A stretch of 64,000 nucleotides of DNA from an uncultured Candidatus Saccharibacteria bacterium (GCA_964506305.1 CAZDKD010000001.1:8031-72030), one strand, 5' to 3'; positions 1,901-62,392 are shown, counted from the first letter of the stretch. Translations and numbers: made by a program. Notes: a model not told the origin generated them from the letters alone.

Positions 1901-2464
1901 ATGCCAAATTTTTGTCCAAGTTGTGGGAATAAAATAGAGCCCGGAGAAGATAAGTTTTGCCCTTCTTGCGGAGCAGAATTACCAGCCCAGCCGGTTTCAT
2001 CGGGAGTGGAAAATCTGAAGAGAGCTTTTGAGGAAATAAGATGCGAGCTTAGCTTAGATGAAATTTTTAACATTTTAGGGTGTGCAAAATCAGTCCTAAT
2101 TAATTGGCGGGAAGCGAGATGGAGCCGGAGGAGGGAAGAGGAATCAATACTTAGAGGGCTGTTTATTCTTACCAGAGAAAACATCTTTTTCTTAATAAAA
2201 GCAATTTGGCCCGGCAAACTGACCAAAAGGGCAATAGAGTCAACCACGATGGTAATCCCTGTTTCCACTATAAGAGAAGTTAAGGCCTCAAAAACTTTAT
2301 TTAGCCGCAAGTTTAAAATAATCAGGATTAAGGGTTTAGTAAAAAAAAGAGGGGCTTTCTTCAGAAAAGAGCGTTGGACCAGAGAGACATTCTACCTTGA
2401 AAATTCAGATCAGTTAGCTAAAGAGATAAGAACCTGCCTCGTTAAACGCTCGACAGAACCTTGA
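1901..2464 (+). CDS. N-terminal double-CxxC zinc-ribbon protein with bacterial PH-like C-terminal domain
   Basis: FCPSCGNKI...KFCPSCGAEL zinc ribbon; C-terminal basic beta-rich region resembling bPH/GRAM-like fold (inference). Confidence 0.4.
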   Translation: MPNFCPSCGNKIEPGEDKFCPSCGAELPAQPVSSGVENLKRAFEEIRCELSLDEIFNILGCAKSVLINWREARWSRRREEESILRGLFILTRENIFFLIKAIWPGKLTKRAIESTTMVIPVSTIREVKASKTLFSRKFKIIRIKGLVKKRGAFFRKERWTRETFYLENSDQLAKEIRTCLVKRSTEP

Positions 2465-2504
2465 TTCGCTAAAGTGGAGATATATAATCTTGAATTAAAG
2501 TTAC
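2431..2504 (+). promoter_or_regulatory. conserved promoter/operator cassette family R3, copy a (..CGCTCGACAGAACCTTGATTCGCTAAAG..ATATAATCTTGAATTAAA)
   Basis: -35 TTGATT, ~17 nt, -10 TATAAT-like; 5 related copies in window (24165, 48381, 49411, 62317). Confidence 0.5.
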
Positions 2505-2525
2505 TAAATCTAAACATTAAATAAT

Positions 2526-3107
2526 ATGAAAAAACTAAAAATTTTTATTCCAATATTACTTTTAGCGGTTTTGATTTTGACCGGGTTCAGCTGCGGGGAG
2601 GAATCAAAGCGGAAAAAAGATGAAGATGAAGAAAAAGACGAATTGGAGGATTACACTCTTTATAAAAATGAAGAGTGGGATTTTGAGATTTACTACCCCG
2701 AGGATTGGGAAAAAGAGATAGTATTTGATGAGATTGAGGGGATACAAGCGTATTTCACTTCTCCAGAACAAGGGCCAGCAGATGATTTTCAGGAAAGCGT
2801 TTTCTTGATGGTAGGAGAGCCGGATCCTTATACTGATTTTGACGAGTATGCGACAGACACAGTAGCGATGATGGAGGCGGATGAAGCGACGGAAATGATA
2901 AAATTTTCAAAAGAAACGATTAGCGGATACCCAGCTTATAAATTAGTTTATGCTCAATCTTCAGATTGGGGCGAGTATCAGTCTTTGGAGCATTTTCTGA
3001 ATACCGGCGATACATGGGCTTTAATATCTTATACTGCTAAGAAAGACCAGTATTCTGAGTTTTTAGACGAGGTTGAAATAATGGTTGATTCTTTTGAGAT
3101 AAAGTAA
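2526..3107 (+). CDS. acidic putative lipoprotein
   Basis: Signal peptide, LTGFSCG lipobox, D/E-rich mature part. Confidence 0.5.
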   Translation: MKKLKIFIPILLLAVLILTGFSCGEESKRKKDEDEEKDELEDYTLYKNEEWDFEIYYPEDWEKEIVFDEIEGIQAYFTSPEQGPADDFQESVFLMVGEPDPYTDFDEYATDTVAMMEADEATEMIKFSKETISGYPAYKLVYAQSSDWGEYQSLEHFLNTGDTWALISYTAKKDQYSEFLDEVEIMVDSFEIK

Positions 3108-3122
3108 TAATTAAATTTAAAA

Positions 3123-4004
3123 ATGGCAAAGTTTTGTCCTAAATGCGGAAAAGAATTAAAAGTTGGAGTTAAATTTTGTCCTTCTTGTGGAACGACGCTG
3201 AAAGGACAGTTTTTGAAACCTTCTCAAGAGAAGACTAAACAAGCCGAGCAGCCCGAAAAGAGTAAAAAAACCAAACAATCTAAAAAACTCAAAGGAGCCG
3301 AACTTAAAAAAGGGGCAGAGAAATCTATCCAGCCTGTTTCTTCGGCGCCGATTTCGCATTCTGCTCAGCTAGCCCGGCCGATTGCTCCAATCCAGCCAAG
3401 AAAACCAATTACTCCGCCTCGCCCTTCCTACTCTTCTGCGCCCTCGCCGAAAAAGAGCGGCGGTTTGGGTTGCGGAGCCGGATGCGGCATAGGCTGTTTA
3501 GTGGTAGTAATAATTGTCTTGCTAATTTTGGGTACTTTAGTCGGTTTTGGTTATTATTTTCTTTTTGTCAGAGACACGGGAGAAAGCGGAGGTTACTTTG
3601 ATATTGATAAAGATAAGGTCGGAAAAACGGTTAAATGCGGCGATTCTATAGCTTGTTTAGATACAAATCTTAAGGAGTGCGCTCGGGCTAAAGGTAAAAC
3701 AGAGATAGAAGATTTTGCCGAAGTAAGCTTTGAAGTACTGGGACCGAGCGAAGATACCAAAGATTCCTGCGTGGTTTTTGCCGAAGTCGATGAATTAAAA
3801 GGCTCTTTTTCTCAGTTAGAATCTCTTCCTTCTTTTCTCTCGGACAAAATAACAGAAGATTTATCTATAGAATGCCTAATTCCAGAGAAAGTTTATACTG
3901 AGGGAATAGAAAAGACCACAGAATATATTGCTGATAATATGTTTGAAGTTTGCAGGGGAAAAGCTCTTGATTTTTTAAGCAAATATGGAGTTGAAGAATA
4001 TTAA
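3123..4004 (+). CDS. zinc-ribbon membrane protein (N-term Zn ribbon, K/P/S-rich linker, one TM, Cys-containing extracytoplasmic domain)
   Basis: FCPKCGKEL...KFCPSCGTTL; low-complexity KKTKQSKK / PxxP linker; hydrophobic helix LVVVIIVLLILGTLVGFGYYFLF. Confidence 0.5.
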   Translation: MAKFCPKCGKELKVGVKFCPSCGTTLKGQFLKPSQEKTKQAEQPEKSKKTKQSKKLKGAELKKGAEKSIQPVSSAPISHSAQLARPIAPIQPRKPITPPRPSYSSAPSPKKSGGLGCGAGCGIGCLVVVIIVLLILGTLVGFGYYFLFVRDTGESGGYFDIDKDKVGKTVKCGDSIACLDTNLKECARAKGKTEIEDFAEVSFEVLGPSEDTKDSCVVFAEVDELKGSFSQLESLPSFLSDKITEDLSIECLIPEKVYTEGIEKTTEYIADNMFEVCRGKALDFLSKYGVEEY

Positions 4005-4057
4005 AAAATACTAAAAAAGGTCGAATTTCGAGATTAATATAAGCCGTAATAATTAAG

Positions 4058-4852
4058 ATGAAAATATTTAATAGAATTGTTTTATCGGTTTTAGTTCTCG
4101 GAGGAGCATTTTTTCTTACCGGTCAGGCTTTAGCAAGTTTAGACCTTATATTTTGTATTGATCTTACCGGCAGTATGTGGGACGATATTGATGAAGTTCA
4201 AAAGGAGGCCTCGGAAATAGTTGACGAAATATCGGAGATTTCAGGTTTCCGAGTAGCTATTGTTGGATATAGAGATTTCTCGGATGATACAATGTTTGAG
4301 GACTATGAATTTTCAGATGATAAAGAAGAAATTTTAGACAACATAGATGATTTAACGGTAAGCGGAGGGGGTGATATGCCCGAAGCTGTTTATGAAGCTC
4401 TGCTCAGAGCTATTAACACGGAGGAAATTGGGAGTTGGAGAGACGGTGTTTCCAAAATGATAATTCTTATGGGAGACGCGCCTCCTCATGAGAAAGGAGA
4501 CGCTGAGGTTTATAAGTATACCTTAGAAGATGTTGCTAAAGCTGCTTATGAAGTAGATCCTGCTAATATTTATTCGATTGTGATAGGAGACGATGAGCTT
4601 ACTGCTGAGAAGTTTGAAGAGCTTTCTGACGAGACGGATGGTGACTTTTTCTTAGCCGCGGAGGCTAAAGACCTACCGGGCGAGATTAAAAAAGCTACCC
4701 AAAAAATAGTAGAGGAAGTAGAAAAAAGAGAGGAGGAAGAGATTGATTGGAAGAAGATTATATTATTTGTGGTCATAGGATTAGGAGTTGCTTTGGTGGT
4801 TTTGATAGTAATTATAGTAGTGGTTGTTATAATCTTGAAAAAGAAGAAATAG
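4058..4852 (+). CDS. von Willebrand factor type A (vWA) domain protein with C-terminal membrane anchor
   Basis: Signal peptide; MIDAS-like DLTGSM motif; C-terminal hydrophobic helix followed by KKKK. Confidence 0.65.
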   Translation: MKIFNRIVLSVLVLGGAFFLTGQALASLDLIFCIDLTGSMWDDIDEVQKEASEIVDEISEISGFRVAIVGYRDFSDDTMFEDYEFSDDKEEILDNIDDLTVSGGGDMPEAVYEALLRAINTEEIGSWRDGVSKMIILMGDAPPHEKGDAEVYKYTLEDVAKAAYEVDPANIYSIVIGDDELTAEKFEELSDETDGDFFLAAEAKDLPGEIKKATQKIVEEVEKREEEEIDWKKIILFVVIGLGVALVVLIVIIVVVVIILKKKK

Positions 4853-4942
4853 AATTTAAATTAAATTCGAAATAATCTAAAAGGTCGTATCTAGCCCGAT
4901 TCTGTGGGGCTAATTAATTAGAGTAGGCTAATCCAAAAATTT

Positions 4943-5455
4943 ATGGATGCACTTCCTTTAATTTTGAGTTTTGTATACGCTTTCTTTTTTCTGATTTTTT
5001 ATGTTTACAATGCAATTTGCTTAATGGCAATAGCTAAAAAGACCGCAGTTTCTAACGGCTGGATGGCTTGGATCCCGATTCTGAATTTATATTTAATGTG
5101 TAGGGTGGCTGGTAAATCTGGTGCTTGGATACTCTTACTTTTACTTCCTGTTATAAATATTATCGCTATTGTTGTTTTATGGATGGCTATTTCTGAGAGA
5201 TGTGGCAAGCCAGGCTGGTGGGGAATATTAATGCTGATTTCGCCGGTGAACTTTATAATAATGGGGGTTTTAGCTTTTTCTAAAAGTCCGGTTGTTCCAA
5301 TGCCGCCTCCGGCGGCAGCTGCTCCATTGCCTTCTCAACCTCAGTCTCAAATTCCCGCTTCCGGACCCGCTGGAGGCAGAAGATTTTGTTCTCAATGCGG
5401 GACGCCGATTGGGCCTGCTGACAGATTTTGCCCAAACTGCGGAGCTAGGATGTAA
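4943..5455 (+). CDS. multi-TM membrane protein with C-terminal double-CxxC zinc ribbon
   Basis: 3-4 TM helices; C-terminus RFCSQCGTPIGPADRFCPNCG. Confidence 0.5.
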   Translation: MDALPLILSFVYAFFFLIFYVYNAICLMAIAKKTAVSNGWMAWIPILNLYLMCRVAGKSGAWILLLLLPVINIIAIVVLWMAISERCGKPGWWGILMLISPVNFIIMGVLAFSKSPVVPMPPPAAAAPLPSQPQSQIPASGPAGGRRFCSQCGTPIGPADRFCPNCGARM

Positions 5456-5503
5456 GATAAACAAAAGATCGCCCTTTCGGCGATTTTTTGTTAAAATGTA
5501 TTT

Positions 5504-6187: not shown

Positions 6188-6254
6188 CAATGGAATTTTA
6201 TGCTAAAATATATAAAAAGGTTGTGGATAACTAAATAAGCAATATTTTAAAAAA

Positions 6255-6559: not shown

Positions 6560-6596
6560 ACCCCGCACTCTAAATTATTTTTGCTGTAATTTCTTA

Positions 6597-6629: not shown

Positions 6630-6688
6630 ATCTGTTATAACTTGACAAATTCTTAAAAGTTGCTAAAAATACATCATAATATATTATT

Positions 6689-7926: not shown

Positions 7927-7932
7927 TAGAAT

Positions 7933-11971: not shown

Positions 11972-13093
11972 ATGTTTATCAAACAGAAATTTTTTCAAAA
12001 GGGTATGCTTGTTTTTGCTTTTTTATTGGAGGCTATTAATTTGTGCGGATGTACTAGAAATAAGAAGCCCAAAAGAAAAGTAGTTGTATTTGTGCTGGAT
12101 AGCTTTATAGAAGAAGAGAGCCACGGCGAGCTCGTGGCGGATATAATTGAAGAGAAATCTCTTTCTAAGTGTGAGATAAAAATTATAGATGTTTTCTTTT
12201 CAATAGGAGCAAAAAAGAACAAATATTTAAAGGCCTTAGCAGATGTTTCGGATTATGCAGATAAGCATCCGAATGAAGCAATTGTGGTGAATATAAGTTT
12301 GTGCAGCAAGAATTATAATCTATTAGAGCATTTAATGATTTCAGAGCTTTATGAAAAAGGAGTGATAGTTGTAGCTGCGGCGGGTAATGACGCTACTTCT
12401 AATAGGCGATATCCGGCAGCTTATAGAGAGACAATAGCGGTTGCTGCTTTACATTGGAAAAGGAAAGCTGATTATTCTAACTATGGCAGTCATATTGATT
12501 TAGCTACGTCTGGTTTTGGAAGCGAAAAGTTATTGAAAAAAGAAACATCTGGAGGAGGCCTTTTTATAGAGGAAACGAAGTATTACAGCGTAAGAGGCGG
12601 AACATCGTTTGCAACGCCAAGAGTTGCTGGCTTAATCGCTTATTTATTAAGGCAGAGGCCAGAGCTAAGCCCTAGAGAGATAGTTCATCTTGTAAAAGAA
12701 AATGCTACTCCTGTAAAGGACAAATTTGGGCGTTGTGGACTATTAGGCGCGAGAATCAATCCTTACGGCACTATCTTTGCTGTTGATCCTGTTTACCAAC
12801 GAGCCCTCGTTTTTCAAATTGCTTCCATTGTTGCAGTGTTAATTTTTTGGATTTTTTGCGATAGATTCTTTGATGCCAATGGCGGATTATTTTTTACAGG
12901 TTTGTTGCTATTCGGATTATTGCTAATAGCAGCAAATATTATTCTTATTCAGGCCTGGAATATCATATACGGCACTATTGCAGGCAGCACATTAATTTTA
13001 TTGGCTGGTCTTTGCCTTCCCATGATGTACTCTTTTAATAAAAAGAAAAAAGAAAAGGAAAAAATGGAAAGGCTTGGCGAATTTGAAACTTAA
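11972..13093 (+). CDS. subtilisin-like serine peptidase (S8) with C-terminal membrane anchor
   Basis: Asp block VVFVLDS, His block SHGELVADII, Ser block GGTSFATPRVAG; C-terminal TM helices. Confidence 0.8.
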   Translation: MFIKQKFFQKGMLVFAFLLEAINLCGCTRNKKPKRKVVVFVLDSFIEEESHGELVADIIEEKSLSKCEIKIIDVFFSIGAKKNKYLKALADVSDYADKHPNEAIVVNISLCSKNYNLLEHLMISELYEKGVIVVAAAGNDATSNRRYPAAYRETIAVAALHWKRKADYSNYGSHIDLATSGFGSEKLLKKETSGGGLFIEETKYYSVRGGTSFATPRVAGLIAYLLRQRPELSPREIVHLVKENATPVKDKFGRCGLLGARINPYGTIFAVDPVYQRALVFQIASIVAVLIFWIFCDRFFDANGGLFFTGLLLFGLLLIAANIILIQAWNIIYGTIAGSTLILLAGLCLPMMYSFNKKKKEKEKMERLGEFET

Positions 13094-13121
13094 AGCGGAG
13101 AATAATTCTCCGCTTTTTTTT
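13094..13121 (+). terminator. intrinsic terminator
   Basis: AGCGGAGAAT-a-ATTCTCCGCTTTTTTTT. Confidence 0.65.
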
Positions 13122-13203
13122 ATTTTAGCTTGAAAATAACCCAAAAAAGAGTTAGATTAAAAGTGGAAAAATTTCTTAAAAACTCAAATAATAAAATAAA
13201 AAC

Positions 13204-13734: not shown

Positions 13735-13763
13735 AAAGACCCCGCCAAGGCGGGGCCTTTTTT
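13735..13763 (+). terminator. intrinsic terminator (GC hairpin family)
   Basis: AAAGACCCCGCC-aa-GGCGGGGCCTTTTTT. Confidence 0.65.
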
Positions 13764-13765
13764 AA

Positions 13766-13841
13766 TTGACAAACTCCTAATTCTGTGATATTTTTCATTA
13801 GTGATTAAATGTTCATTTAAAATTTAGAAAGGAGATAGAAA
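13766..13841 (+). promoter_or_regulatory. conserved promoter+5'UTR cassette R5 copy A (TTGACAAACTCCTAATTCTGTGATATTTTTCATTAGT.ATTAAAT.GTTC.TTTAAAA...GGAGAT)
   Basis: -35 TTGACA, extended -10 TGTGATATT, AT-rich UTR, SD GGAGAT; four near-identical copies (13766, 14875, 16419, 17100). Confidence 0.55.
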
Positions 13842-14844: not shown

Positions 14845-14873
14845 AAGCCCGAGAAAATTCCCGGGCTTTTTTT
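14845..14873 (+). terminator. intrinsic terminator
   Basis: AAGCCCGAG-aaaatt-CCCGGGCTTTTTTT. Confidence 0.6.
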
Positions 14874-14874
14874 A

Positions 14875-14944
14875 TTGACAAACTCCTAATTCTGTGATAT
14901 TTTTCATTAGTAATTAAATAGTTCTTTAAAAAAGGAGATTGATT
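14875..14944 (+). promoter_or_regulatory. promoter+5'UTR cassette R5 copy B
   Basis: ttgacaaactcctaattctgtgatatttttcattagtaattaaatagttctttaaaaaaggagatt, 96% identical to copy A. Confidence 0.55.
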
Positions 14945-16383: not shown

Positions 16384-16413
16384 AAACGCTCCGCCAAGAC
16401 GGAGCGCTTTTTG
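16384..16413 (+). terminator. intrinsic terminator (copy of 10121 terminator)
   Basis: AACGCTCCGCC-aa-GACGGAGCGCTTTTT. Confidence 0.65.
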
Positions 16414-16418
16414 TTTTA

Positions 16419-16497
16419 TTGACAAATTCATAATTTCGTGATATTTTTCACTAGCGTATTAAACAAACAGTTCTTTGAAAATTGAAAGGAGATTGAA
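16419..16497 (+). promoter_or_regulatory. promoter+5'UTR cassette R5 copy C (more diverged)
   Basis: ttgacaaattcataatttcgtgatatttttcactagcgtattaaacaaacagttctttgaaaattgaaaggagattgaa. Confidence 0.5.
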
Positions 16498-17008: not shown

Positions 17009-17099
17009 ATTCCCCTGCCCCCGCGGGGGCAGGGGAAGGATGTTATTATGCGACAGGGATTTTAGGGAAACCCTGGGTTGAATTTCGCTCAAAAAAGAA

Positions 17100-17170
17100 T
17101 TGACAAACTCATTTTTTTGTGATATTTTTCAGTAGGTATTAAATAGTTCTTTAAAAAAAGGAGATAGGAA
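17100..17170 (+). promoter_or_regulatory. promoter+5'UTR cassette R5 copy D
   Basis: ttgacaaactcatttttttgtgatatttttcagtaggtattaaatagttctttaaaaaaaggagatagga. Confidence 0.55.
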
Positions 17171-24065: not shown

Positions 24066-24152
24066 AACGCAAAACTAAACGCAAAACTAAACTCGGTTTA
24101 GTTTTAAGAGTGAGAAGTCGTTGACGACAGTCGTCAACGAAAATCAAAAAAT
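24066..24152. repeat. composite palindromic repeat R1 copy a: (ACGCAAAACTAA)x2-ACTCGGTTTAGTTTTAAGAGTGAGAAG-TCGTTGACGACAGTCGTCAACGA-AAATCAAAAAATT
   Basis: Two perfect hairpins (AAACTAAAC-tcg-GTTTAGTTT; TCGTTGACGAC-a-GTCGTCAACGA); copies at 25385, 28465(partial), 29465, 31378(partial). Confidence 0.6.
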
Positions 24153-24164
24153 TGATTGAGAAAT

Positions 24165-24230
24165 AAGAACCCCCCGCTTAGCGGGGGAACCTTAATTCGT
24201 TAATGTATAAATATATAATCTTGAATTAAA
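24165..24230 (+). promoter_or_regulatory. promoter cassette R3 copy b, interrupted by an inserted GC hairpin CCCCCGCTTAGCGGGGG
   Basis: aagaac|cccccgcttagcggggg|aaccttaattcgttaatgtataaatatataatcttgaattaaa. Confidence 0.45.
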
Positions 24231-24234: not shown

Positions 24235-24441
24235 ATGTTTAAAAAGTTAGTAATTTTATTAAACATTATTGTTTTCGGTTTATTTGTTGTACAATTCTTT
24301 ACTACCTCAGGTATTGTTTTCTTTTTAACTGCAAACAGAGCGGGCTTAATAGGAAAAATCTCAGATTTGTTCTATATGGCTTTACTTTTTTTTACTCCAC
24401 TATTAAGTATTATTTTGCTTTTGAAATATAAATCTAAATAA
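24235..24441 (+). CDS. small membrane protein
   Basis: Two TM helices, C-terminal KYKSK. Confidence 0.35.
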   Translation: MFKKLVILLNIIVFGLFVVQFFTTSGIVFFLTANRAGLIGKISDLFYMALLFFTPLLSIILLLKYKSK

Positions 24442-24999: not shown

Positions 25000-25043
25000 A
25001 CTCCCCGCCGAGGCGGGGCGGGCAAAGATAATTAAAATTTTTT

Positions 25044-25379
25044 ATGGAAAATATTAAACTTCTACCAAAAACTAAATTAGGCAAATGGTCGGTTGGATTG
25101 ATAATCGCTATGTTCTCATTATTTTTTCTTGGCATGTCATTTTTTCTAAAAGTATATACATCTGTTTCAGCAGGAGAAACTATTTTAAAAGATATTGTTG
25201 CAAGGCCGTGTTTAGCGTTATCGATGCTTTCTGGCTTTGCTTCCGGTATCATTGCTTTTATCACGGGGCTTACTGCGATTATAAAAAATAAAGAAAGGTC
25301 TATTTTGGTGTTTATCGCAACAATTATTGGTGCCTTGCTTATTTTATTCCTTACGGCAGAAATAACATCCCCGCATTAA
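25044..25379 (+). CDS. membrane protein, paralog 1 (96% nt identity to 29119-29457)
   Basis: 3 TM helices; MENIKLLPKTKLGKWSVGLIIAMFSLFFLGMSFF... Confidence 0.5.
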   Translation: MENIKLLPKTKLGKWSVGLIIAMFSLFFLGMSFFLKVYTSVSAGETILKDIVARPCLALSMLSGFASGIIAFITGLTAIIKNKERSILVFIATIIGALLILFLTAEITSPH

Positions 25380-25384
25380 ACAAT

Positions 25385-25458
25385 CACAAAACTAAACTCG
25401 GTTTAGTTTTAAGAGTGAGAAGTCGTTGACGACAGTCGTCAACGAAAATCAAAAAATT
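25385..25458. repeat. composite palindromic repeat R1 copy b
   Basis: aaaactaaactcggtttagttttaagagtgagaagtcgttgacgacagtcgtcaacgaaaatcaaaaaatt identical to copy a core. Confidence 0.6.
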
Positions 25459-26766: not shown

Positions 26767-28464
26767 ATGACTCAACAAGAAGCATTAGATATATTAAAAC
26801 TAGGGCATAATATCTATTTAACGGGTCCGCCGGGAAGCGGGAAAACTTTTTTGTTAAATAAATATATTGATTATTTGAAAAAAAATCACAGAGGGGTGGC
26901 AATAACTGCCTCTACTGGAATTGCTGCCACCCATATGCAGGGAGTTACTATTCATTCTTGGTCAGGTATGGGCATTAAAGAAAAACTTACCGAGAGAGAT
27001 CTCGGAAAACTTCTGAAGAAATCTTATCTTAGGAAAAGATTTAGAAATACCGGGGTGCTTATTATTGATGAGATATCAATGCTTCATGCTTTTCAGTTTG
27101 ATTTAATAAATTTTATCTGTCAGGCATTTAAAAATAGCGCAAAGCCTTTTGGCGGAATGCAGGTGGTATGTTCGGGTGATTTTTTCCAGCTTCCTCCTGT
27201 GCAGAAAGGAGAAAAGCCGAAATTTGTCACCGAATCAAAGGCATGGGAAAATGTGAATATGAAAATATGTTATCTTGAAGAACAGTATCGTCAAGAGGAA
27301 AATGGCGCATTACTCACCTTGTTAAATCATATTCGAAATAATGAGATTAATGAGGCAAAGGAGTTATTAGCCGACATAGACAGCGAAGAAAAAGTATGTT
27401 CAACCAAGCTTTATACTCATAATGTGGATGTTGCAGCTATTAATAATTCTGAATTAGTCAAAATAGACGGGGAGGAGTTTGGGTATGATATGCGCTCCGA
27501 GGGCAATAAAGATATTGTGGTTATGCTCAAGAAGGGTTGTTTGGCGCCCGAAAAGTTGATTCTTAAAAAAAAGGCCAAAGTAATGTTTGTAAAAAATAAT
27601 TTCGATAAGGGCTATGTAAATGGCACTCTTGGCGAGGTAATTGGTTTTGATGTTGATGGGTTGCCTGTTATAAAAATTACTGGGGGCGAACATATTGTTG
27701 CCAGACCTGCAAGCTGGACTATTGAGGAAGATGATGTTGTTAAAGCTGAAATTAGTCAAATTCCTCTTCGTCTGGCCTGGGCCATAACGGTGCATAAAAG
27801 CCAGGGCATGAATCTTGATGCTGCTGAAATTAATCTTTCTAAATCATTTGTTGAAGGAATGGGGTACGTGGCCCTTTCCAGGCTGCGTTCGCTTGCAGGG
27901 TTGAAACTTATGGGAATAAATGAGTTAGCTCTTACGGTCAATCAAGAGGTTTCGGAGTTAGATAGGGTATTAAAACAGATGTCGCAGGAAGTGACTGAAT
28001 ATTTTAAAAAAATGAAAATATGGGAGAAAAATAAGAAACAAAGACAATTTTTAGATTTTCTCCCCAGAGTTGAACCCGGCAAAAGAGATAAAAAAGAAAA
28101 AAAGAGGCTTGGGCCAACTTATGAAGAGACCAAAATTCTAGTTCGTCAAAAGCTTCCGATTAAAGAAATTGCCGAACATAGATGTTTGAGCGAAGAAACT
28201 ATTATAAGCCATTTAGAGAAATTAAATGCTCGCAAAGAAGAAATTGATTTAGGATATTTACAATTACCGGAAGAACGTTTTAAGAAAATTAAGATGGTCT
28301 TTCAGCAAACCGGTGATTTTAAATTATCTCCGGTTAAACAGATACTTGGTAAAGATTTTTCTTTTCAAGAGATAAGATTAACTCGTTTATTTATAAAAAA
28401 AGATAAAGAAGTTGAAAAATTTGCTGAAAAGGAAGAAGTTTCACAATTAAAAAAATACAAATAA
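26767..28464 (+). CDS. PIF1/RecD-like ATP-dependent DNA helicase
   Basis: Walker A LTGPPGSGKTFLL, ITASTGIAAT, LIIDEISML, GDFFQLPPV, ITVHKSQG; C-terminal HTH-like tail. Confidence 0.75.
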   Translation: MTQQEALDILKLGHNIYLTGPPGSGKTFLLNKYIDYLKKNHRGVAITASTGIAATHMQGVTIHSWSGMGIKEKLTERDLGKLLKKSYLRKRFRNTGVLIIDEISMLHAFQFDLINFICQAFKNSAKPFGGMQVVCSGDFFQLPPVQKGEKPKFVTESKAWENVNMKICYLEEQYRQEENGALLTLLNHIRNNEINEAKELLADIDSEEKVCSTKLYTHNVDVAAINNSELVKIDGEEFGYDMRSEGNKDIVVMLKKGCLAPEKLILKKKAKVMFVKNNFDKGYVNGTLGEVIGFDVDGLPVIKITGGEHIVARPASWTIEEDDVVKAEISQIPLRLAWAITVHKSQGMNLDAAEINLSKSFVEGMGYVALSRLRSLAGLKLMGINELALTVNQEVSELDRVLKQMSQEVTEYFKKMKIWEKNKKQRQFLDFLPRVEPGKRDKKEKKRLGPTYEETKILVRQKLPIKEIAEHRCLSEETIISHLEKLNARKEEIDLGYLQLPEERFKKIKMVFQQTGDFKLSPVKQILGKDFSFQEIRLTRLFIKKDKEVEKFAEKEEVSQLKKYK

Positions 28465-28494
28465 CGCAAAACTAAACTCGGTTTAGTTTTAAAA
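28465..28494. repeat. R1 partial copy c (first palindrome only)
   Basis: acgcaaaactaaactcggtttagttttaaaa. Confidence 0.5.
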
Positions 28495-28497
28495 TAT

Positions 28498-29109: not shown

Positions 29110-29457
29110 ATGGAAAATTTCATGAAAAATATTAAACTTCTACCAAAAACTAAATTAGGCAAATGGTCGGTTGGATTGATAATCGCTATGTTCTCATTAT
29201 TTTTTCTTGGCATGTCATTTTTTCTAAAAGTATATACATCTGTTTCAGCAGGAGAAACTATTTTAAAAGATATTGTTGCAAGGCCGTGTTTAGCGTTATC
29301 GATGCTTTCTGGCTTTGCTTCCGGTATCATTGCTTTTGTCACGGGGCTTACTGCGATTATAAGAAAAAAAGAAAGGTCTATTTTGGTGTTTATTTCAACA
29401 ATTATTGGTGCGTTGCTTATTTGGTTTCTTGCGGCACAAATAATGTCCCCGTGTTAA
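29110..29457 (+). CDS. membrane protein, paralog 2 of 25044 gene
   Basis: Near-identical protein (A->V, K->R, I->S changes only). Confidence 0.5.
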   Translation: MENFMKNIKLLPKTKLGKWSVGLIIAMFSLFFLGMSFFLKVYTSVSAGETILKDIVARPCLALSMLSGFASGIIAFVTGLTAIIRKKERSILVFISTIIGALLIWFLAAQIMSPC

Positions 29458-29464
29458 ATTATTA

Positions 29465-29524
29465 ACGCAAAACTAAACTCGGTTTAGTTTTAAGATTGAG
29501 AAGTCGTTGATGACTGTCGCCAAA
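29465..29524. repeat. R1 copy d (second palindrome degenerated: GTCGTTGATGACTGTCGCC)
   Basis: acgcaaaactaaactcggtttagttttaagattgagaagtcgttgatgactgtcgcc. Confidence 0.55.
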
Positions 29525-31096: not shown

Positions 31097-31378
31097 ATGT
31101 TATCACAAATACCTATTAATCTTGAGAAAATAAAAAAAGAGGATTTAGATAAAGAGATATTAAGAATTGGAATGATAGCTGAATTGGATGCTGTTTCTCT
31201 TTACGAACAATTAGCCGCAATGACCGAGAACGAAACTTTTAAAAAAGTTCTTTTGGATATAGCCAAAGAAGAAAAAACTCACATGGGGGAATTCCAATCC
31301 TTATTACTTCAAATAGATTCGGAGCAAGCAAGCGAGTTGGAAGAAGGCAAAAAAGAAGTTGAAGAATTAACAAATTAA
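31097..31378 (+). CDS. ferritin-like/rubrerythrin-like half-domain protein
   Basis: ELDAVSLYEQLA ... AKEEKTHMGEF : E-x-x-H di-iron-type ligand spacing in helical protein. Confidence 0.4.
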   Translation: MLSQIPINLEKIKKEDLDKEILRIGMIAELDAVSLYEQLAAMTENETFKKVLLDIAKEEKTHMGEFQSLLLQIDSEQASELEEGKKEVEELTN

Positions 31379-31406
31379 CGTAAGACTAAACTCGGTTTAG
31401 TTAAAC
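31378..31406. repeat. R1 partial copy e
   Basis: acgtaagactaaactcggtttagttaaac. Confidence 0.45.
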
Positions 31407-31442
31407 TATGCCCTGCCGCCCTGGCGGCAGGGCAGGGTAAAG

Positions 31443-48348: not shown

Positions 48349-48380
48349 TATACCGAGAACCTGATATGGAACAATATTTA

Positions 48381-48450
48381 TAAGAACCTGCTCGCTCTGC
48401 TCGCAGAACCTTGATTCGCTAAGGTATGGAACATATGATCTTAAATTTAG
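48381..48450 (+). promoter_or_regulatory. promoter cassette R3 copy c
   Basis: taagaacctgctcgctctgctcgcagaaccttgattcgctaaggtatggaacatatgatcttaaattta. Confidence 0.5.
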
Positions 48451-48632
48451 AAAATTCATGGATTTTTTTGTTAATAGCTCTCTGGACATTGCCTTGGAAG
48501 GGGGTGGCCTTATGGAAATCTGCTAAAAATAAACAAGTAGGATGGTTTGTTGCCATGCTGATTTTAAATACTCTTGCTATATTGGAAATCATTTATATTT
48601 TTTATTTCAGTAAAAAGAAAAAAATAGTATGA
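48426..48632 (+). CDS. small membrane protein (WKG.ALWKSAKN..W.W pattern)
   Basis: Two TM; driven by R3c; stop overlaps next start. Confidence 0.4.
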   Translation: MEHMILNLENSWIFLLIALWTLPWKGVALWKSAKNKQVGWFVAMLILNTLAILEIIYIFYFSKKKKIV

Positions 48633-49169: not shown

Positions 49170-49415
49170 ATGTTTGATAAATTAAAACAAATTGGAAAAT
49201 TAAGAGAGGTTCAAAAATCTTTGGAAGACGAAAAAGTTGAGATAGAAAAAAATGGAACTCGGGTTGTGATAAACGGCAATCTTAAGGTTTTGAGCGTTAG
49301 TTTAAATTCGGGGTTGGAGAAAGAAGAGCAGGAAAAAGTTTTGAGCGAATGCTTTAATGAGGGCATGGAAAAGGTCAAACTTGCCATGGCTCAGAAATTT
49401 CAGGGGATGATATAA
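49170..49415 (+). CDS. ybaB: YbaB/EbfC nucleoid-associated protein
   Basis: MFDKLKQIGKLREVQ...VVINGNLKVLSVSLN pattern. Confidence 0.7.
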   Translation: MFDKLKQIGKLREVQKSLEDEKVEIEKNGTRVVINGNLKVLSVSLNSGLEKEEQEKVLSECFNEGMEKVKLAMAQKFQGMI

Positions 49416-49485
49416 GAACCATGACTCGTTTCACTCGTCAGAATCTTGATTCGCTGATGTAAAACATATAGTCTTGAATTAGAAA
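49411..49485 (+). promoter_or_regulatory. promoter cassette R3 copy d
   Basis: tataagaaccatgactcgtttcactcgtcagaatcttgattcgctgatgtaaaacatatagtcttgaattagaaa. Confidence 0.45.
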
Positions 49486-49541
49486 TTTTTTTAAAAAACA
49501 ACGAGCGGATTAGTAAAACTAATCCGCTTTTTTCTTGCCTC

Positions 49542-49615
49542 GTAGAGAAAATTTGACTGCCTTTAACAGGAAGTATTTTGCTAAGCAAAACATCTGTCAA
49601 GTTTCTTCTACGGGG
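49542..49615 (+). ncRNA. conserved ~70-nt structured element, copy 2
   Basis: gtagagaaaatttgactgcctttaacaggaagtattttgctaagcaaaacatctgtcaagtttcttctacgggg; preceded by terminator 49499-49535. Confidence 0.35.
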
Positions 49616-55557: not shown

Positions 55558-55749
55558 ATGTCTTATAAAGTTAATAAAGAAAAATGCATAGGTTGCGGAA
55601 GTTGCGTCCAAGCTTGCGAGGGAGCAATAGAGTTAGGAGATGACGGAAAAGCAAAAGTTATAAACCAGGAAAAACTTGAACAGTGCGGGGGAGAAAGCGT
55701 TTGTCCTTTTGGAGCGATAGAAAAGATAGAAGAAGAGAAAAAGTGTTAA
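55558..55749 (+). CDS. 4Fe-4S ferredoxin (oxidoreductase delta-like)
   Basis: CIGCGSCVQACEG ... CGGESVCPFGAIE. Confidence 0.75.
   Translation: MSYKVNKEKCIGCGSCVQACEGAIELGDDGKAKVINQEKLEQCGGESVCPFGAIEKIEEEKKC
55693..55748 (+). repeat. direct repeat copy A (3' end of ferredoxin gene) flanking a 2-gene insertion; copy B at 56809-56862
   Basis: gaaagcgtttgtccttttggagcgatagaaaagatagaagaagagaaaaagtgttaa vs taaagcgtttgtctttttggggcgatagaaaagacagaagaagagaaaaaataa (~90% id). Confidence 0.6.
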
Positions 55750-55882
55750 AAGAAGTTTCTAAGAGAATAAGTCAATCTTTTGACAAGGTTTGGGAATTTG
55801 AAGAAGAGAAAGGTATTTCCTCGGGAGAGGCAGTTTTTTTTATTTAGTCTTAATAAAATAGTAAAAGATATTAAATAAAAAA

Positions 55883-56209
55883 TTGAGAATGAAAAAAGAA
55901 ATTGATAATACAATAGATACATCTAATGTTGTATTAAAATGGAGTCCTGACCCAAAAGGATATTTTACAATAAAACCTTTTCCTTCTAAAAAGAAAATTT
56001 TTGTAAGGTATTATAATTCAAAGAATATTTTAAAGCATACTTTTGCCGGAACAATTACATTACAGATAATGCAAGCGATTATTAAGAGAAAATTAATTTC
56101 AAAATTAGACCATGCTGCTTATCTTGGAAAAGAGATTGAAAAGGCCATAATTGCGTTAAAAAACAATCTTAATTACGTTCAGGATAAAGAGTTAAAATTA
56201 AAAAAATAA
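55883..56209 (+). CDS. hypothetical protein (DUF4346-like; ...DHAAYLGKEIEKA)
   Basis: Motif recollection only. Confidence 0.3.
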   Translation: MRMKKEIDNTIDTSNVVLKWSPDPKGYFTIKPFPSKKKIFVRYYNSKNILKHTFAGTITLQIMQAIIKRKLISKLDHAAYLGKEIEKAIIALKNNLNYVQDKELKLKK

Positions 56210-58555: not shown

Positions 58556-58633
58556 AAAGAGTGCGAGGAAAGTCTACGAAGCTGATTCAAAAAGTCGTTT
58601 GTTAAAATTAACTCTTAATTTTTTTTAAATTCT

Positions 58634-59146
58634 ATGGCTATTATAAAATCGTTAGAGAAAAATGAAGTTGAGGAAACAGCTAAAGAGGTTTATGAAAAAT
58701 TTGAAAAAGATTCCGGAAAAGTTCCAGAATGGGTAAAAGTAATGGCTCATAACCCGAAAGTGGTAAAGGAGTTTACCGAATTATTTAAAGTAATAATGAA
58801 AGAAGGGTATATAGAGCCTTCTTTAAGATGGAAAATAGCTTATATTGTTTCCAACACTTTAAAGTGTCCTTTTTGTGTGGATGTAACCGGTAAGATGCTT
58901 GAAACTATGGGTGCCTCAAGCGAGGTTTTGGAGCAAATAAAAGAAGGCAAAGATCTTCCGGAAGAAGAAAAGCAAGTGTTAGAACTCGTAAAAGAAGTAA
59001 CTGCTAAAGCTACTTGTAATACGGAGCTTCTGGAAAAACTAAAGGCGAAGTTTTCAGAAGCAGAGCTGGTAGAAATTGTTTCAATTATCGGCTTGTTTAA
59101 TTATATCAACCGTTTCAACAATACTTTTTGCATTCTTCCTGAATAA
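58634..59146 (+). CDS. carboxymuconolactone decarboxylase/AhpD-like protein
   Basis: IAYIVSNTLKCPFCVDVTG (CxxC in AhpD-like helix). Confidence 0.6.
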   Translation: MAIIKSLEKNEVEETAKEVYEKFEKDSGKVPEWVKVMAHNPKVVKEFTELFKVIMKEGYIEPSLRWKIAYIVSNTLKCPFCVDVTGKMLETMGASSEVLEQIKEGKDLPEEEKQVLELVKEVTAKATCNTELLEKLKAKFSEAELVEIVSIIGLFNYINRFNNTFCILPE

Positions 59147-59148
59147 TA

Positions 59149-59787
59149 ATGAAAGTCACCATTATCTATGACAATACTGCTTTCAAAAAAGACCTTCAAT
59201 CTAATTGGGGCTTTTCTGTATTAGTTGAGGTAAAAAATACTCCAAGAATTTTGTTTGATACTGGCGGAGATGGAAAAATTTTGCTCGGTAATATGAAAAA
59301 GTTAGGAATAAATCCAACTTCAATTGATGAGGTTTTTATTTCTCATGCTCATTTTGACCATACCGGAGGACTTTCTGAATTTCTGAATGTAAATAAAAAA
59401 GCTAAAATTTACATCCCGTCCTCATTTCATGGACTAAAAAATAGAGAAGTTGTTGTTATAGAAAAGCCGACAAAAATTCACGAAAATGTTTTCTCTACCG
59501 GAGAGCTGGAGGGAATTGAACAGAGTATGGCAGTTTCAACCGACAAAGGAATAGTTTTGATTGTAGGTTGCTCCCATCCTTATATGGGTCATATTTTAGA
59601 TGCAGCTAGAAAATTTGGGCAAATCTATGCGGTTATTGGAGGAATGCATGGATTTTCTGAATTTGAATTATTTAAAGATTTAGAATTAATTTGTCCTACT
59701 CATTGTACTCAACACAAAGCCGAGCTCAAAAAGTTATATCCCCAAAAATATATTGAAGGCGGAGCAGGCCAAATAATTGATATTTAA
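59149..59787 (+). CDS. metallo-beta-lactamase fold hydrolase
   Basis: ISHAHFDHTGGL. Confidence 0.65.
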   Translation: MKVTIIYDNTAFKKDLQSNWGFSVLVEVKNTPRILFDTGGDGKILLGNMKKLGINPTSIDEVFISHAHFDHTGGLSEFLNVNKKAKIYIPSSFHGLKNREVVVIEKPTKIHENVFSTGELEGIEQSMAVSTDKGIVLIVGCSHPYMGHILDAARKFGQIYAVIGGMHGFSEFELFKDLELICPTHCTQHKAELKKLYPQKYIEGGAGQIIDI

Positions 59788-59789
59788 TT

Positions 59790-60371
59790 ATGGAAAATGA
59801 TATTTTAAGAATAGTAAAAGAAGATCTTTTAGAAGAATTGAAAAGAAAAAATGATAAGCTTTCGTCCTTACTGATAGAGCCTGAGATTAAAGTTTCCCGT
59901 TTTTTTATATCTAAAGCGATTGGAGAATTAAAGAAGGAAGATTTGATACAAACTAAAGGAGAGTTGATTTTTTTAACCGAACAAGGAAACAAAAAAGCGG
60001 AAAGCATTGTTAGAAAACATTCTATTATTGAGAATTATTTTAAAAAGACAAGAAGTAAAGAAGAAGCCTGGAAAGCTGCTAGTATTCTTGAACATTATGT
60101 TTCTATGAAAGTTATTGATAATATAAAAAAGTTATCTACGTTCAGAAAAGAGGGTGCTCCTTTAACAGAATTTAAACAAAAGGAAGGATTAATTACCGAT
60201 ATTATTTTTAATGTTGGATTATTTGAGAGAGTAGTTAGTATGGGAATATGTCCCGGAGAGAAAATAAAGATAACCAATAAACTTCCAGATAGTATTATTG
60301 TTGAAATAGAAAATAAAAAGTTTGCCTTAGATTTATCTATAGCAAAAAAAATTAAAGTATTAAAAAGGTGA
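59790..60371 (+). CDS. DtxR-family metal-dependent regulator with C-terminal FeoA domain
   Basis: N-terminal wHTH, FeoA-like ITDIIFNVGLFERVVSMGICPGEKIKI; immediately upstream of feoB with 4-nt overlap. Confidence 0.55.
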   Translation: MENDILRIVKEDLLEELKRKNDKLSSLLIEPEIKVSRFFISKAIGELKKEDLIQTKGELIFLTEQGNKKAESIVRKHSIIENYFKKTRSKEEAWKAASILEHYVSMKVIDNIKKLSTFRKEGAPLTEFKQKEGLITDIIFNVGLFERVVSMGICPGEKIKITNKLPDSIIVEIENKKFALDLSIAKKIKVLKR

Positions 60372-62251
60372 AAAAACTCAAAATACTTTTAGTTGGTCAA
60401 CCAAACGTAGGGAAATCAGTACTACTCAACGCTTTAGTTGGCCCAAGGGGTTTGGTTTCCAATTATCCTGGCACCACGGTTGAAATAACTCAGGCAGAGA
60501 AAATTTTTGGCGATACAAGAATAAGTTTTGTTGATACTCCTGGAGTATATTCTATATCTGACAGGTCAGAGGAAGAAAAAGTCACCGAAAAGGCTTTATT
60601 TGAACAAAAAATAGATGGAGCAATAGTAATCGCTGATGCTACTTCTCTTGAAAGAAGTCTTTATGTGTTACTGCAAATATTAGAGGCTCGAATTCCTGTT
60701 GTTTTGGCTCTTAATTTTGTAGAAGACGGTGAAAAGAGGGGAATAAAGATTAATTGTGAAAAGCTAAAGAAACTTCTCGGGATTTCAGTTGTTCCTATCA
60801 ATCCTTTAACCAGAAGAGGAATAGCTGAATTGGTAAAGAAAATATTGATTATTCAACAGGTGGCAAGACCTAGATTTAGAACAAATTATGACGATGATAT
60901 CGAAAGAGCAATAAATATAGTTTCTGAACAGGTTAAAGATACTCTACCTCAAAGATTTATTGCCCTAAGAGTTTTGGAAGAGGATGAAGATTTTTATAGT
61001 TATTTAAAAAATAAAGAAGTAATTGGAGAAATTAAACGAAGTTTAAAGAATCACCCCGAAATTTCCAAAGATATATCTATAACTAGATACGGCACAGCCT
61101 CGTTTATAGCCAGAGAAGTCACTAATATAGTTTCTTTAAAAAGTAAAAAAAAGTTATTAGAGGAGAGAATCGATGATATTCTATTGCATAAAATCTGGGG
61201 TCCAATTACTACTGGAATATCTTTTTTGGCAATATTCGGGATTTTATTGTATCTAGGCAGTTGGATGCAAGGTTTATTGATGAAATGGGCAGAGAAGTTT
61301 TTATCTTCTTTTGCTCCAGCAGATTCGGTATTTTCTATAATCCTAGTTCAAGGTTTAACTGGGTTAACAGCTGGTATTGCTATTGCCTTGCCATATGTAT
61401 TATTGTTCTATTTGCTTTTGGGTTTATTGGAAGACATAGGTCTTCTTTCCAGATTTATTGTTAATACGGATAGATTTTTAAAAAAATTGAGTCTTTCTGG
61501 GAAATCATTTATTCCTTTAGCTCTGGGTTTGGGTTGTACGGTGCCGGCAATTCGAGCTACTAGAGTTTTATCTTCCAAAAAGGAACAGCATTATACTTCA
61601 ACATTATTCGCCTTTGTTCCCTGTTCTAGTAGAATAGCTATAATAATGGGGATAGTCGGTTTTTATGGAGGGATAAAGTTAGCTTTTTCTGTTTTCATTA
61701 CTTTGTTTATTGCTGGCTTGATATGGATTCTTGTGATAAAACAAATTTTCCATATAAAGAGTGAACCCCTGCTTTTAGAGTTGCCTCCGTACCGAAAGCC
61801 CTTGGTTAAAGGCACTTTGGTAAAAAGCTGGCTCAGGATGAAAGATTTTGTATATATAGTTGTGCCTTTGTTAGCAGTAGGGGGGATAGTTTATGGAATT
61901 CTTAAGATGACAGGCCTTACCGAAGTTATAGTAGGTCCTCTTTCCCCGATTACTAATTGGTTAGGTTTGCCGGCTGCTCTCGTAATTCCTTTAGCATTTG
62001 GATTTTTGCAAAAAGATTTAACCGGAGCAATGCTGATATCGGTTTTAGGCAGTGATGTTTCTTCTATTCTCAGTCCTCTCCAGATTTATACATTTGGCAT
62101 AGCTGCCACTATTGGTATTCCTTGCATAATCGCTTTGGGAATGTTAGCAAAAGAATTTGGATTAAAGAAAGCATTAATTTTAACCGTATGTTCTGTAGGT
62201 TATGGGCTTTTATTCGCCGGTTTAATGTGGAGGGTAATCTCTGTTTTCTAA
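60368..62251 (+). CDS. feoB: ferrous iron transporter B
   Basis: G-domain LVGQPNVGKSVLLNALVG, DTPGVYS, then gate/nucleoside-recognition polytopic membrane region. Confidence 0.85.
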   Translation: MKKLKILLVGQPNVGKSVLLNALVGPRGLVSNYPGTTVEITQAEKIFGDTRISFVDTPGVYSISDRSEEEKVTEKALFEQKIDGAIVIADATSLERSLYVLLQILEARIPVVLALNFVEDGEKRGIKINCEKLKKLLGISVVPINPLTRRGIAELVKKILIIQQVARPRFRTNYDDDIERAINIVSEQVKDTLPQRFIALRVLEEDEDFYSYLKNKEVIGEIKRSLKNHPEISKDISITRYGTASFIAREVTNIVSLKSKKKLLEERIDDILLHKIWGPITTGISFLAIFGILLYLGSWMQGLLMKWAEKFLSSFAPADSVFSIILVQGLTGLTAGIAIALPYVLLFYLLLGLLEDIGLLSRFIVNTDRFLKKLSLSGKSFIPLALGLGCTVPAIRATRVLSSKKEQHYTSTLFAFVPCSSRIAIIMGIVGFYGGIKLAFSVFITLFIAGLIWILVIKQIFHIKSEPLLLELPPYRKPLVKGTLVKSWLRMKDFVYIVVPLLAVGGIVYGILKMTGLTEVIVGPLSPITNWLGLPAALVIPLAFGFLQKDLTGAMLISVLGSDVSSILSPLQIYTFGIAATIGIPCIIALGMLAKEFGLKKALILTVCSVGYGLLFAGLMWRVISVF

Positions 62252-62316
62252 TTGAAACCGGTCTTAAAATACTTTAGTAAGGCACATCGAAGGAGGAGCA
62301 GGAAGAATAATAGAAT

Positions 62317-62392
62317 TATAAGAACCTACTCGCTTCGCTCGCAGAACCTTGATTCGCTAAGGAATAAATACATAATCTTGAAATAAATTATT
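62317..62392 (+). promoter_or_regulatory. promoter cassette R3 copy e
   Basis: tataagaacctactcgcttcgctcgcagaaccttgattcgctaaggaataaatacataatcttgaaataaa. Confidence 0.5.

Follow-up and report, generated by a model that had tools for sequence, protein, structure and literature searches.

What are the five similar sequences that recur on the + strand of a 64,000-nucleotide (nt) stretch of DNA from an uncultured Candidatus Saccharibacteria bacterium (GCA_964506305.1 CAZDKD010000001.1:8031-72030), here called the window? The original prediction took them for copies of a promoter combined with an operator for a dedicated regulator, each placed between a stop codon and a gene for a small membrane, secreted or Cys-rich protein. 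Our analysis indicates that the five sites are probably members of a small insertional, modular and promoter-carrying interspersed repeat family of Parcubacteria of the Nealsonbacteria/Minisyncoccales type. Comparison with homologous loci shows that such units are gained and lost at orthologous sites, and a hairpin near their 5' end, HP1, is maintained as a structure by compensatory substitutions. The window itself is bacterial, with 35% G+C and nearly all genes on the + strand; it contains no tRNA genes and no match to Rfam 15 at the gathering score. Its gene content (lgt, feoB, ybaB, a nitroreductase, DUF5652 and 2-oxoacid:ferredoxin oxidoreductase) and its relatives place it in the Parcubacteria-type Patescibacteria.

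All five predicted copies, here a to e, are present. The 19-mer GAACCTTGATTCGCTAAGG, with up to three mismatches allowed, matches the window at exactly these sites (0.02 matches expected from shuffled sequence), and the pattern TAAGAACC-N9-30-GAACC finds four of the five, with 0.05 expected. The five copies align over the blocks TAAGAAC, AA(C/T)C, TT(G/A)ATT, CG(C/T)T(A/G)A.G., a TATAAT-like hexamer and CTT(G/A)AA. The shared -35/-10 core of the original prediction is likewise found in every copy as a near-consensus sigma-70-type pair, spaced by 16, 16, 17, 15 and 16 nt in copies a to e, respectively. The units and their parts are as follows.

2427-2498, + strand: copy a, whole unit, inside the 3' end of the zinc-ribbon gene at 1901-2464
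2434-2456, + strand: HP1 of copy a, CTGCCTCGTTAAACGCTCGACAG, backed by covariation in the family
2461-2488, + strand: promoter-like pair of copy a, TTGATT at 2461-2466, 16-nt spacer, TATAAT at 2483-2488; next ATG at 2526
24164-24229, + strand: copy b, whole unit, 5 nt 5' of the ATG at 24235 (68-residue membrane protein)
24171-24187, + strand: HP1 of copy b, perfect and GC-rich, CCCCCGC-TTA-GCGGGGG
24192-24219, + strand: promoter-like pair of copy b, TTAATT, 16-nt spacer, TATAAT
48381-48449, + strand: copy c, whole unit; the DUF5652 open reading frame (ORF) at 48426-48632 begins within it
48388-48406, + strand: HP1 of copy c, CTGC-TC-GC-TCT-GC-TC-GCAG
48411-48439, + strand: promoter-like pair of copy c, TTGATT, 17-nt spacer, TATGAT; matched by a promoter consensus scan
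49413-49482, + strand: copy d, whole unit, between the ybaB stop (TAA at 49413-49415) and the ybaB terminator
49420-49441, + strand: HP1 of copy d, CATGACTCGTTTCACTCGTCAG
49446-49472, + strand: promoter-like pair of copy d, TTGATT, 15-nt spacer, TATAGT
49503-49529, + strand: intrinsic terminator right after copy d, the pre-existing ybaB terminator, outside the unit
62319-62386, + strand: copy e, whole unit, in the spacer between feoB and a Cys-rich-protein gene; ATG at 62403, 20 nt past CTTGAA
62326-62344, + strand: HP1 of copy e, CTACTCGCTTCGCTCGCAG
62349-62376, + strand: promoter-like pair of copy e, TTGATT, 16-nt spacer, CATAAT

Beyond the window, an exact-pattern scan of one genome per species gave 118 loci, in which nhmmer found 96 matches at 53 loci. 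Fifty of these belong to Patescibacteria and are labelled Candidatus Nealsonbacteria, Minisyncoccales, Parcubacteria or "Patescibacteria group", with one automatically named set of metagenome-assembled genomes labelled Saccharibacteria. The other three (two Pseudomonas, one Bacteroidetes) were set aside as weak, partial chance matches, and the rest of the 118 are chance matches to the 17-mer in which the other blocks are missing. A metagenome scan anchored on TAAGAACC...GAACC-NNNNNN-CGCTAA, with the hexamer left free, yielded 150 matches, and in 133 of them the free hexamer is TTGATT; one metagenome locus (L205) contains a copy identical to copy e. In all we count more than 200 copies, 179 of them unique and full-length. 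Viral contigs gave no real copies, their 17 matches all being due to chance with the other blocks missing, and since the window is cellular a set of phage promoters was rejected. A known RNA family was rejected as well, because the element is unmatched in Rfam at E <= 1 in three array-bearing loci. In the literature searched we found no paper with the sequence of the unit or describing such a repeat in Patescibacteria.

The alignment of the five copies with about 200 relatives defines the unit as TAAGAAC, HP1, AACC, TTGATT, CGCTAAGGT, 6-8 AT-rich nt, TATAAT, CTTGAA and (T/A)TAA, in this order. It is non-coding and modular, measures about 60-75 bp (typically about 66 bp), and has TAAGAACC as its 5' end and ATCTTGAATTAA as its 3' end. 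HP1 is flanked by GAAC on both sides, its stem covaries, and its length varies from 13 to 34 nt across the family. The commonest version is CTGC(C)-TC-GC-loop-GC-TC-(G)GCAG; the original prediction took the two arms of this imperfect hairpin for direct repeats (CTCGCT...GCTCGCAG), and the outer pairs of the arms covary across the family. Other copies carry simple perfect hairpins instead (e.g. CTGACTTCGTCAG, CTCGCCTTCGGCGAG and CCCCCGCTTAGCGGGGG), and the GC hairpin of copy b, previously regarded as an extra insertion, therefore represents this very module in a different sequence version. With -20 kcal/mol (z = -3.9), copy b is also the sole unit in the window that folds better than shuffled sequence.

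The covariation is seen most directly at the third pair of HP1. Among 116 distinct HP1 versions this pair is G-C in 52, C-G in 23, T-A in 15 and A-T in 4; it is formed in 96 versions where shuffles give 49, and in 2000 shuffles the number 96 was never attained. RNAalifold, applied to 22 copies, reports four HP1 pairs with compensatory double changes. Fifty of 115 versions have a TTCG loop, where about 10 do in shuffles, a five-fold enrichment that, as UUCG forms tetraloops in RNA, points to selection at the RNA level. An inner pairing, either AAGG with TCTT or ACCTT with AAGGT, was tried and rejected: the frequent AATGT and AAGGA variants are, by eye, uncompensated, and RNAalifold predicts no such pairing in the 22 copies.

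Insertion is documented by comparing the flanks among all loci. At the grpE-dnaK junction three genomes are empty (...GCAAAT TAA T ATG..., empty sequence AAATTAATATG), and a fourth is filled, with AAAATAA(GAAC...CTTAAAATAA)TATG, that is, GCAAAA TAA (GAAC...CTTAAAA TAA) T ATG. The rplB-rpsS junction holds no, one or two units depending on the genome; the empty form is TAA-TT-ATG, and the filled ones have the units between TAA and T-ATG. Copies a and d of the window are demonstrable insertions as judged from their homologues. The zinc-ribbon protein upstream of copy a ends in ...LAKEI-RTCLVKRSTEP*, where seven homologues end in ...(K/I)K.L(N/S)PNIKG*, and the last 11 codons and the TGA of the gene (2431-2464) are copy a sequence. 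The upstream ORF thus continues 37 nt into the cassette, which had been thought to follow a stop codon. Joining the flanks of copy a (GAGA + TAA + AGTTACTAAATCTAAACATTAAATAA) restores ...AKEIKLLNLNIK* followed by the T-ATG of the next gene, and the corresponding sites in L261 and L263 are empty. For copy d, the empty site is provided by L258, whose ybaB is 83% identical and reads ...ATG TAA AAATTTTC...terminator, with the homologous AAATTTT...terminator placed directly after TAA.

In copy c, the start codon of DUF5652 (ATG at 48426) lies inside the unit. The start is shared with L256 as ME(H/Q), and the Pfam match covers the protein from residue 4 onwards; about eight N-terminal residues of the protein, as it now starts, are encoded by the element. 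The TAA of copy c probably cut off an original start located just upstream, to judge from the resemblance to L256, and the same stretch could alternatively be a degenerate partial unit. The reverse situation, a site that is empty in the window and filled in a relative, is also found. At the copy b site, an alignment to paralogous D3 repeats, tried as an internal empty site, was uninformative.

48365-48382, + strand: likely former DUF5652 start, ATGGAACAATATTTA = MEQYL; L256 begins ATGGAACAGTATCTA (MEQYL), both differences being synonymous
55860-55885, + strand: empty site in the window; the 94%-identical L200 has a unit here, between GATA and TAAGTAAAAATTGAG

At window positions 55745-55870, the small ferredoxin gene has fused to its rear a non-coding remnant, the fossil 3' end of a gene of the glutamate-dehydrogenase type; L200 has that gene intact, followed by a unit of the repeat family.

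Filled sites have TAA on both sides of the unit and empty sites have it once, with the 3' triplet changed to TAG in copy d and to TTA in copy c. This can be a 3-bp duplication or the result of a unit with its own TAA landing beside a TAA; both fit. A 4-nt duplication (xTAA) was rejected, because the base before TAA differs between the two sides, ATAA/TTAA being the commonest combination. Long target-site duplications were rejected as a general feature, the mean longest flanking match being 6.0 nt compared to 5.5 nt in shuffled sequence. At two sites perfect direct repeats do abut the unit or array, namely TAGACAGAGAA (11 nt) and TGTTACAATA (10 nt), in L095 (reverse strand, 178-244) and L062/L170; such repeats are absent from most sites.

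Units also occur in head-to-tail arrays of up to five, without spacers; L062 contains five identical 66-bp units. At the array junction, ...CTTGAAT|TAAGAAC..., neighbouring units have a single TAA in common. Unit number varies between loci whose flanks are 100% identical: five versus three in L062 and L170, and one versus three in L185 and L129. A CRISPR-like array had been considered owing to the 66-68-nt periodicity of the genome matches, and was rejected since the units abut and leave no spacers. Repeats of the CRISPR or type III toxin-antitoxin RNA kind were rejected too, as near-identical units abut one another and the downstream genes differ among arrays.

Modules of the unit are also encountered singly or in altered form. 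TAAGAAC-HP1-GAAC is found alone, and in short variants the -10 part is swapped for bases that extend a stem (CTTGATTCC-TTC-GGAATTAAG, CTTGAATGC-TTC-GCATTTAAG and CTTGATTAC-TTT-GTAATTAAG). Certain units have hairpins of 20-130 nt inserted between CGCTAAGG and TATAAT. One such variant, 140 nt long, recurs in several genomes (loci L010, L133, L146, L153, L167, L182, L199 and L211, e.g. L211 reverse strand, 12902-13200), also as tandem pairs and arrays; its structured insert of about 75 nt consists of TGCGGC-TTC-GCCGCA followed by TAATTAC...variable hairpin...GTAATTA. In two further loci, mosaic modules have the borders of the unit (AACCTT...CTTGAAATAAGAAC) and another interior (CGTTTCTGCGCTCGCTCG, a long hairpin and CACTCGCTTGAAA; L046 reverse strand, 1300-1620, and L096, 6160-6220), which suggests a wider family of hairpin modules bordered by GAAC and CTTG.

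How are the units placed with respect to genes? At 129 non-redundant sites, the basis of all context statistics, both flanking genes are co-oriented with the unit in 65 cases and both are opposite in 10. In 31 of 85 cases the upstream gene ends with the TAA of the unit as its stop codon, and in 14 further cases the upstream ORF enters the unit. The next ATG lies at most 10 nt from CTTGAA in 34 of 61 cases, recurrently in forms like CTTGAATT-ATG. Genes found downstream are rplU, rpsQ, rpsN, rpsS, rpmI, nusG, secE, pgk, ftsA, prfB, dnaK, pilB/C, HIT, murI, small membrane proteins and others, or there is none; about ten units point at a terminator and a convergent gene.

These data bear on several parts of the original prediction. 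Scans beyond the window do reveal many further copies, but in many genomes they precede unrelated housekeeping genes or no gene, and the downstream genes (those of ribosomal proteins, pili and small membrane proteins, as well as dnaK, pgk, ftsA, nusG and secE, or none) do not form the functional set that had been envisaged. In the window three of the five copies do precede small proteins as described; copy d, which is followed by a terminator and no gene, does not. Spacing to the start codon is not fixed either: the next usable ATG is 31 nt from CTTGAA in copy a, 9 nt in copy b and 20 nt in copy e, the start is internal in copy c, and copy d is geneless.

Does the unit act as a promoter? Of 126 copies collected without bias, 90 (71%) have a geometry compatible with sigma-70, with a modal spacer of 16 nt, and the spacer measures 15-17 nt in about 87% of the scorable copies. 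The commonest -10 hexamers are TATAAT (49 copies) and TATATT (32 copies); variation across the family is mostly at the fifth base, with A2 and T6 kept, a pattern that would be expected of a real -10 box. Readings of GAAC and CTTGAA as extracytoplasmic-function (ECF) sigma or sigma-32 sites were rejected because no matching -10 box is present. Shine-Dalgarno motifs precede only 16 of the 76 window genes, and -10-like hexamers peak 6-8 nt 5' of ATG in 1035 ORFs of Parcubacteria loci with the elements masked; many mRNAs in these genomes may thus be leaderless or nearly so. With a -10 peak at this distance, a start within CTTGAAT|TAA would therefore give leaderless or short-leader messages. Taken together, the hexamers and their spacing make outward promoter activity of the canonical units somewhat likely. 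A general factor that binds CGCTAAGG or the GAAC blocks might conceivably be involved.

We hypothesize that the canonical unit is a ready-made intergenic region. It would supply or preserve a TAA stop and let the upstream message end in an RNA hairpin, and it would provide an outward-facing sigma-70-type promoter from which transcription, starting in CTTGAAT|TAA, would give the downstream gene a leaderless or very-short-leader mRNA. Built-in stop, hairpin and promoter would make insertion into tightly packed gene junctions tolerable. In the window copies a, b and e could work in this way, while copies c and d behave as plain insertions. How the units spread is more speculative. It is possible, and we propose it only tentatively, that the element is of a kind not described before in bacteria, with neither inverted termini nor a gene of its own, and that it homes to TAA (mostly stop codons in ultra-compact genomes) and splits operons without killing the host, being moved by an unrecognised Patescibacteria enzyme or route. 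An HUH nuclease specific for single strands, with the hairpins between GAAC and CTTG as its substrate, would be one example. If it homes in this manner, head-to-tail arrays would arise because the unit's own end recreates the TAA target. An analogy to IS91 and rolling-circle elements, based on the likeness of GAAC/CTTG to IS91 targets and to the nick site CTTGATA, was rejected, as the empty sites have neither tetranucleotide.

Several observations weigh against an insertional, promoter-carrying family. Concerning mobility, the aligned copies have no terminal inverted repeats or terminal complementarity, and a phmmer search for IS200/IS608 TnpA among 6515 ORFs in 1.8 Mb of element-bearing loci found none, although this is a weak test. 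Clustering of the neighbouring ORFs in the element-bearing loci revealed only housekeeping neighbours and no recurrent family resembling a mobilising enzyme. Identity is 0.80 between dispersed copies in one contig, 0.79 between copies in different contigs and 0.93 between tandem neighbours; sharing a contig does not make dispersed copies more similar, and there is therefore no sign of recent bursts. By the same equality the family is old, and its conserved blocks seem to be under constraint throughout; either every copy is constrained, or turnover from conserved sources is fast. Concerning the hairpin, four of the five window units fold no better than shuffled sequence, and HP1 has no U-tract and is followed by AACCUUGAUUCG, so that it is not a canonical terminator; canonical terminators with T-runs are present elsewhere in the window. 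Concerning the promoter, the geometry suffers little where no gene follows (it is kept in 81% of copies beside a gene compared to 72% and 64% elsewhere, p = 0.09), and in 19 of 126 copies (15%) the "spacer" is truncated or holds an inserted hairpin. Such insertions, and a 140-nt variant that still spreads and forms arrays, would not be tolerated by an element that is a promoter and nothing else. Evidence against a purely promoter reading also comes from copy c, which holds the start codon of its gene, and by copy d, which points into a terminator.

The alternative that survives best, although we consider it rather unlikely, is a primarily structured nucleic-acid element, active as RNA in read-through transcripts or as single-stranded DNA during propagation, in which the -35 and -10 likenesses are incidental. 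TAAG, GAAC, CTTG and CGCTAAGG would then be candidate recognition or processing sites around HP1 and a second stem, HP2, and the unit would serve as a punctuation or processing signal between cistrons or as the substrate of an HUH-type nuclease. HP2 would pair TTGATTC with GAATTAA around a central G.T wobble. All six full-length copies with TTGTTT have a partner of the GAAATAA type (Fisher p = 5e-4); several of them have other rare bases in common, however, and this single covarying column may reflect one sub-family. The short variants that trade the -10 part for stem-extending bases are the better argument for HP2, and together these data sustain the possibility that the unit works, or is copied, while folded as a single strand. 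Covariation and TTCG loops in HP1, the tolerance of 20-130-nt hairpins in the spacer by variants that still form arrays, a promoter geometry no better kept beside genes, and the start of the unit at the upstream stop codon all agree with such an element. What it does not explain is the position-specific pattern of the -10 hexamer and a spacer of 16 +/- 1 nt in most copies. In addition, 46 of the 179 full-length copies carry an A.A mismatch in HP2, no inner pairing covaries, most window units are thermodynamically not stable, and neither an Rfam match at E <= 1 nor, in the 1.8 Mb of loci, a Y1 transposase was found.

Could the unit instead be an ordinary strong housekeeping promoter, vertically inherited and immobile, with a terminator-like hairpin upstream and an extended sequence read by the polymerase or a general factor? 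About 40 positions are conserved in every copy despite the diverged HP1 stems, copies within a genome are as diverged as those of different genomes, a unit stands 5' of rpmI in two genomes (L036 and L095), and many downstream genes are highly expressed ones. We nevertheless regard this explanation as improbable. Units are cleanly present or absent at the grpE-dnaK and rplB-rpsS junctions within conserved operons, copy a disrupts a conserved coding C-terminus, and tandem arrays of identical units vary in copy number. Moreover, copy d and about ten other units point at a terminator or a convergent gene, and 10 sites are antisense to both neighbours. The promoter and operator of the original prediction, read by a DtxR-like or sigma protein encoded nearby and controlling small membrane, secreted or Cys-rich genes, is very improbable: conservation does extend well past the hexamers (TAAGAAC, CGCTAAGGT and CTTGAATTAA) and three of the five window copies lie ahead of small proteins, but the supposed operator block is a covarying hairpin, free in sequence as long as it pairs and at a variable distance from the core (from TAAGAAC, measured GAACC to GAACC, it ranges from 20 to 26 nt in the window and reaches about 45 nt outside it) rather than a fixed DNA site, the family precedes unrelated housekeeping genes or none in many genomes, and copies a and d are insertions without any target gene logic.

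An insertional, promoter-carrying repeat has partial counterparts in other bacteria. Like the unit, the Correia elements (CREE/NEMIS) of Neisseria are small non-coding multi-copy intergenic insertions with presence/absence polymorphism, and they can bring outward promoters and transcribed hairpins that alter the expression of neighbours. They have 26-bp terminal inverted repeats, a TA duplication, a length of 100-155 bp and either orientation, whereas the unit has no inverted termini, is flanked by TAA, is strongly co-oriented with genes and forms head-to-tail arrays. REP/BIME elements and SMAG (GTAG-flanked palindromes of Stenotrophomonas) resemble the unit in a conserved tetranucleotide, here GAAC, beside a variable hairpin that keeps its pairing; they too lie just past stop codons and are mosaic or modular, and in both cases the hairpins would form the 3' ends of upstream transcripts. 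REPs are usually inverted pairs (REPINs) without a promoter and are associated with RAYT transposases. The modules of the unit, by contrast, are all direct repeats with a sigma-70-like promoter inside, and a weak search gave no Y1/RAYT match.

BOX elements of Streptococcus pneumoniae (boxA-boxB(n)-boxC) are likewise modular, intergenic and foldable, have variable tandem modules and affect the expression of neighbouring genes; their sequence is unrelated, and they are not known to have a TAA target or to contain a consensus promoter. Miniatures derived from IS200/IS605 (PATEs) and other HUH-driven elements share with the unit the lack of inverted termini, strand-specific hairpins, insertion at a short target and an orientation bias, and here too tandem insertion is possible with the element end recreating the target. 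The unit differs from PATEs in being much smaller, in its internal promoter and in that no TnpA-type gene was detected in 1.8 Mb. With respect to miniature inverted-repeat transposable elements (MITEs), the unit is small, non-coding, multi-copy and present or absent at orthologous sites, and it lacks terminal inverted repeats. Putative mobile promoters, that is, highly similar promoters before unrelated genes within and between genomes, have been described (Nijveen, Matus-Garcia & van Passel 2012, PMC3575422). Those groups are defined by similarity only, while the unit is delimited by defined ends with a TAA junction, contains a covarying hairpin, forms arrays and is documented by filled and empty sites. 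No other element is known to combine a TAA junction and arrays of direct repeats with both a covarying hairpin and a consensus promoter.

What copies a 66-bp unit without inverted repeats to TAA sites? Promoters, transcript boundaries and mobile DNA are almost entirely uncharted in Parcubacteria and the other Patescibacteria, most of which have never been cultured and whose tiny genomes are tightly packed. The unit is a concrete, testable candidate for a strong native promoter that could be of use in genetic tools. Conserved operons (S10/spc and grpE-dnaK) are split by inserted units in these organisms, and the family accounts for the broken contigs and the tandem arrays of variable size that are met when metagenomes of this group are assembled. 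Annotation is affected as well: units overlap the ends (copy a) and starts (copy c) of genes, and gene callers can be misled.

The window contains other repeats. A second, unrelated promoter-like cassette family (TTGACAAACTCC...TGTGATATTTTTCA...) has four copies, at 13754-13822, 14863-14931, 16407-16475 and 17088-17156, each after a canonical terminator and before a gene with a strong AAAGGAG ribosome-binding site; the block at 8-18 kb uses Shine-Dalgarno motifs, unlike most of the window. The hairpin repeat AACGCAAAACTAAACTCGGTTTAGTTTTAAGAG is found five times (24077-24110, 25382-25415, 28462-28495, 29463-29496 and 31376-31409) in a region of restriction-modification-like, PD-(D/E)XK and helicase genes. 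Three of its copies are extended to 85 nt by a second hairpin (GTCGTTGACGACAGTCGTCAAC), and one copy lies directly 5' of copy b. A 300-nt duplication with 97% identity (25040-25339 and 29118-29417) covers a small membrane-protein gene (MENIKLLPKTKLGKWSVGLII...). Finally, a 79-nt imperfect palindrome, GCCC(T/C)GTAGAGAAAATTTGACTGCC...GTCAA..TTCTTCTACGGGG, is present at 1238-1316 and 49537-49615 with 84% identity, and a similar one is found in L262, in the homologous gene spacer that matches the copy a site. The palindrome at 49537-49615 is flanked by TTGACA-17-TATATT promoter-like sites on both strands.

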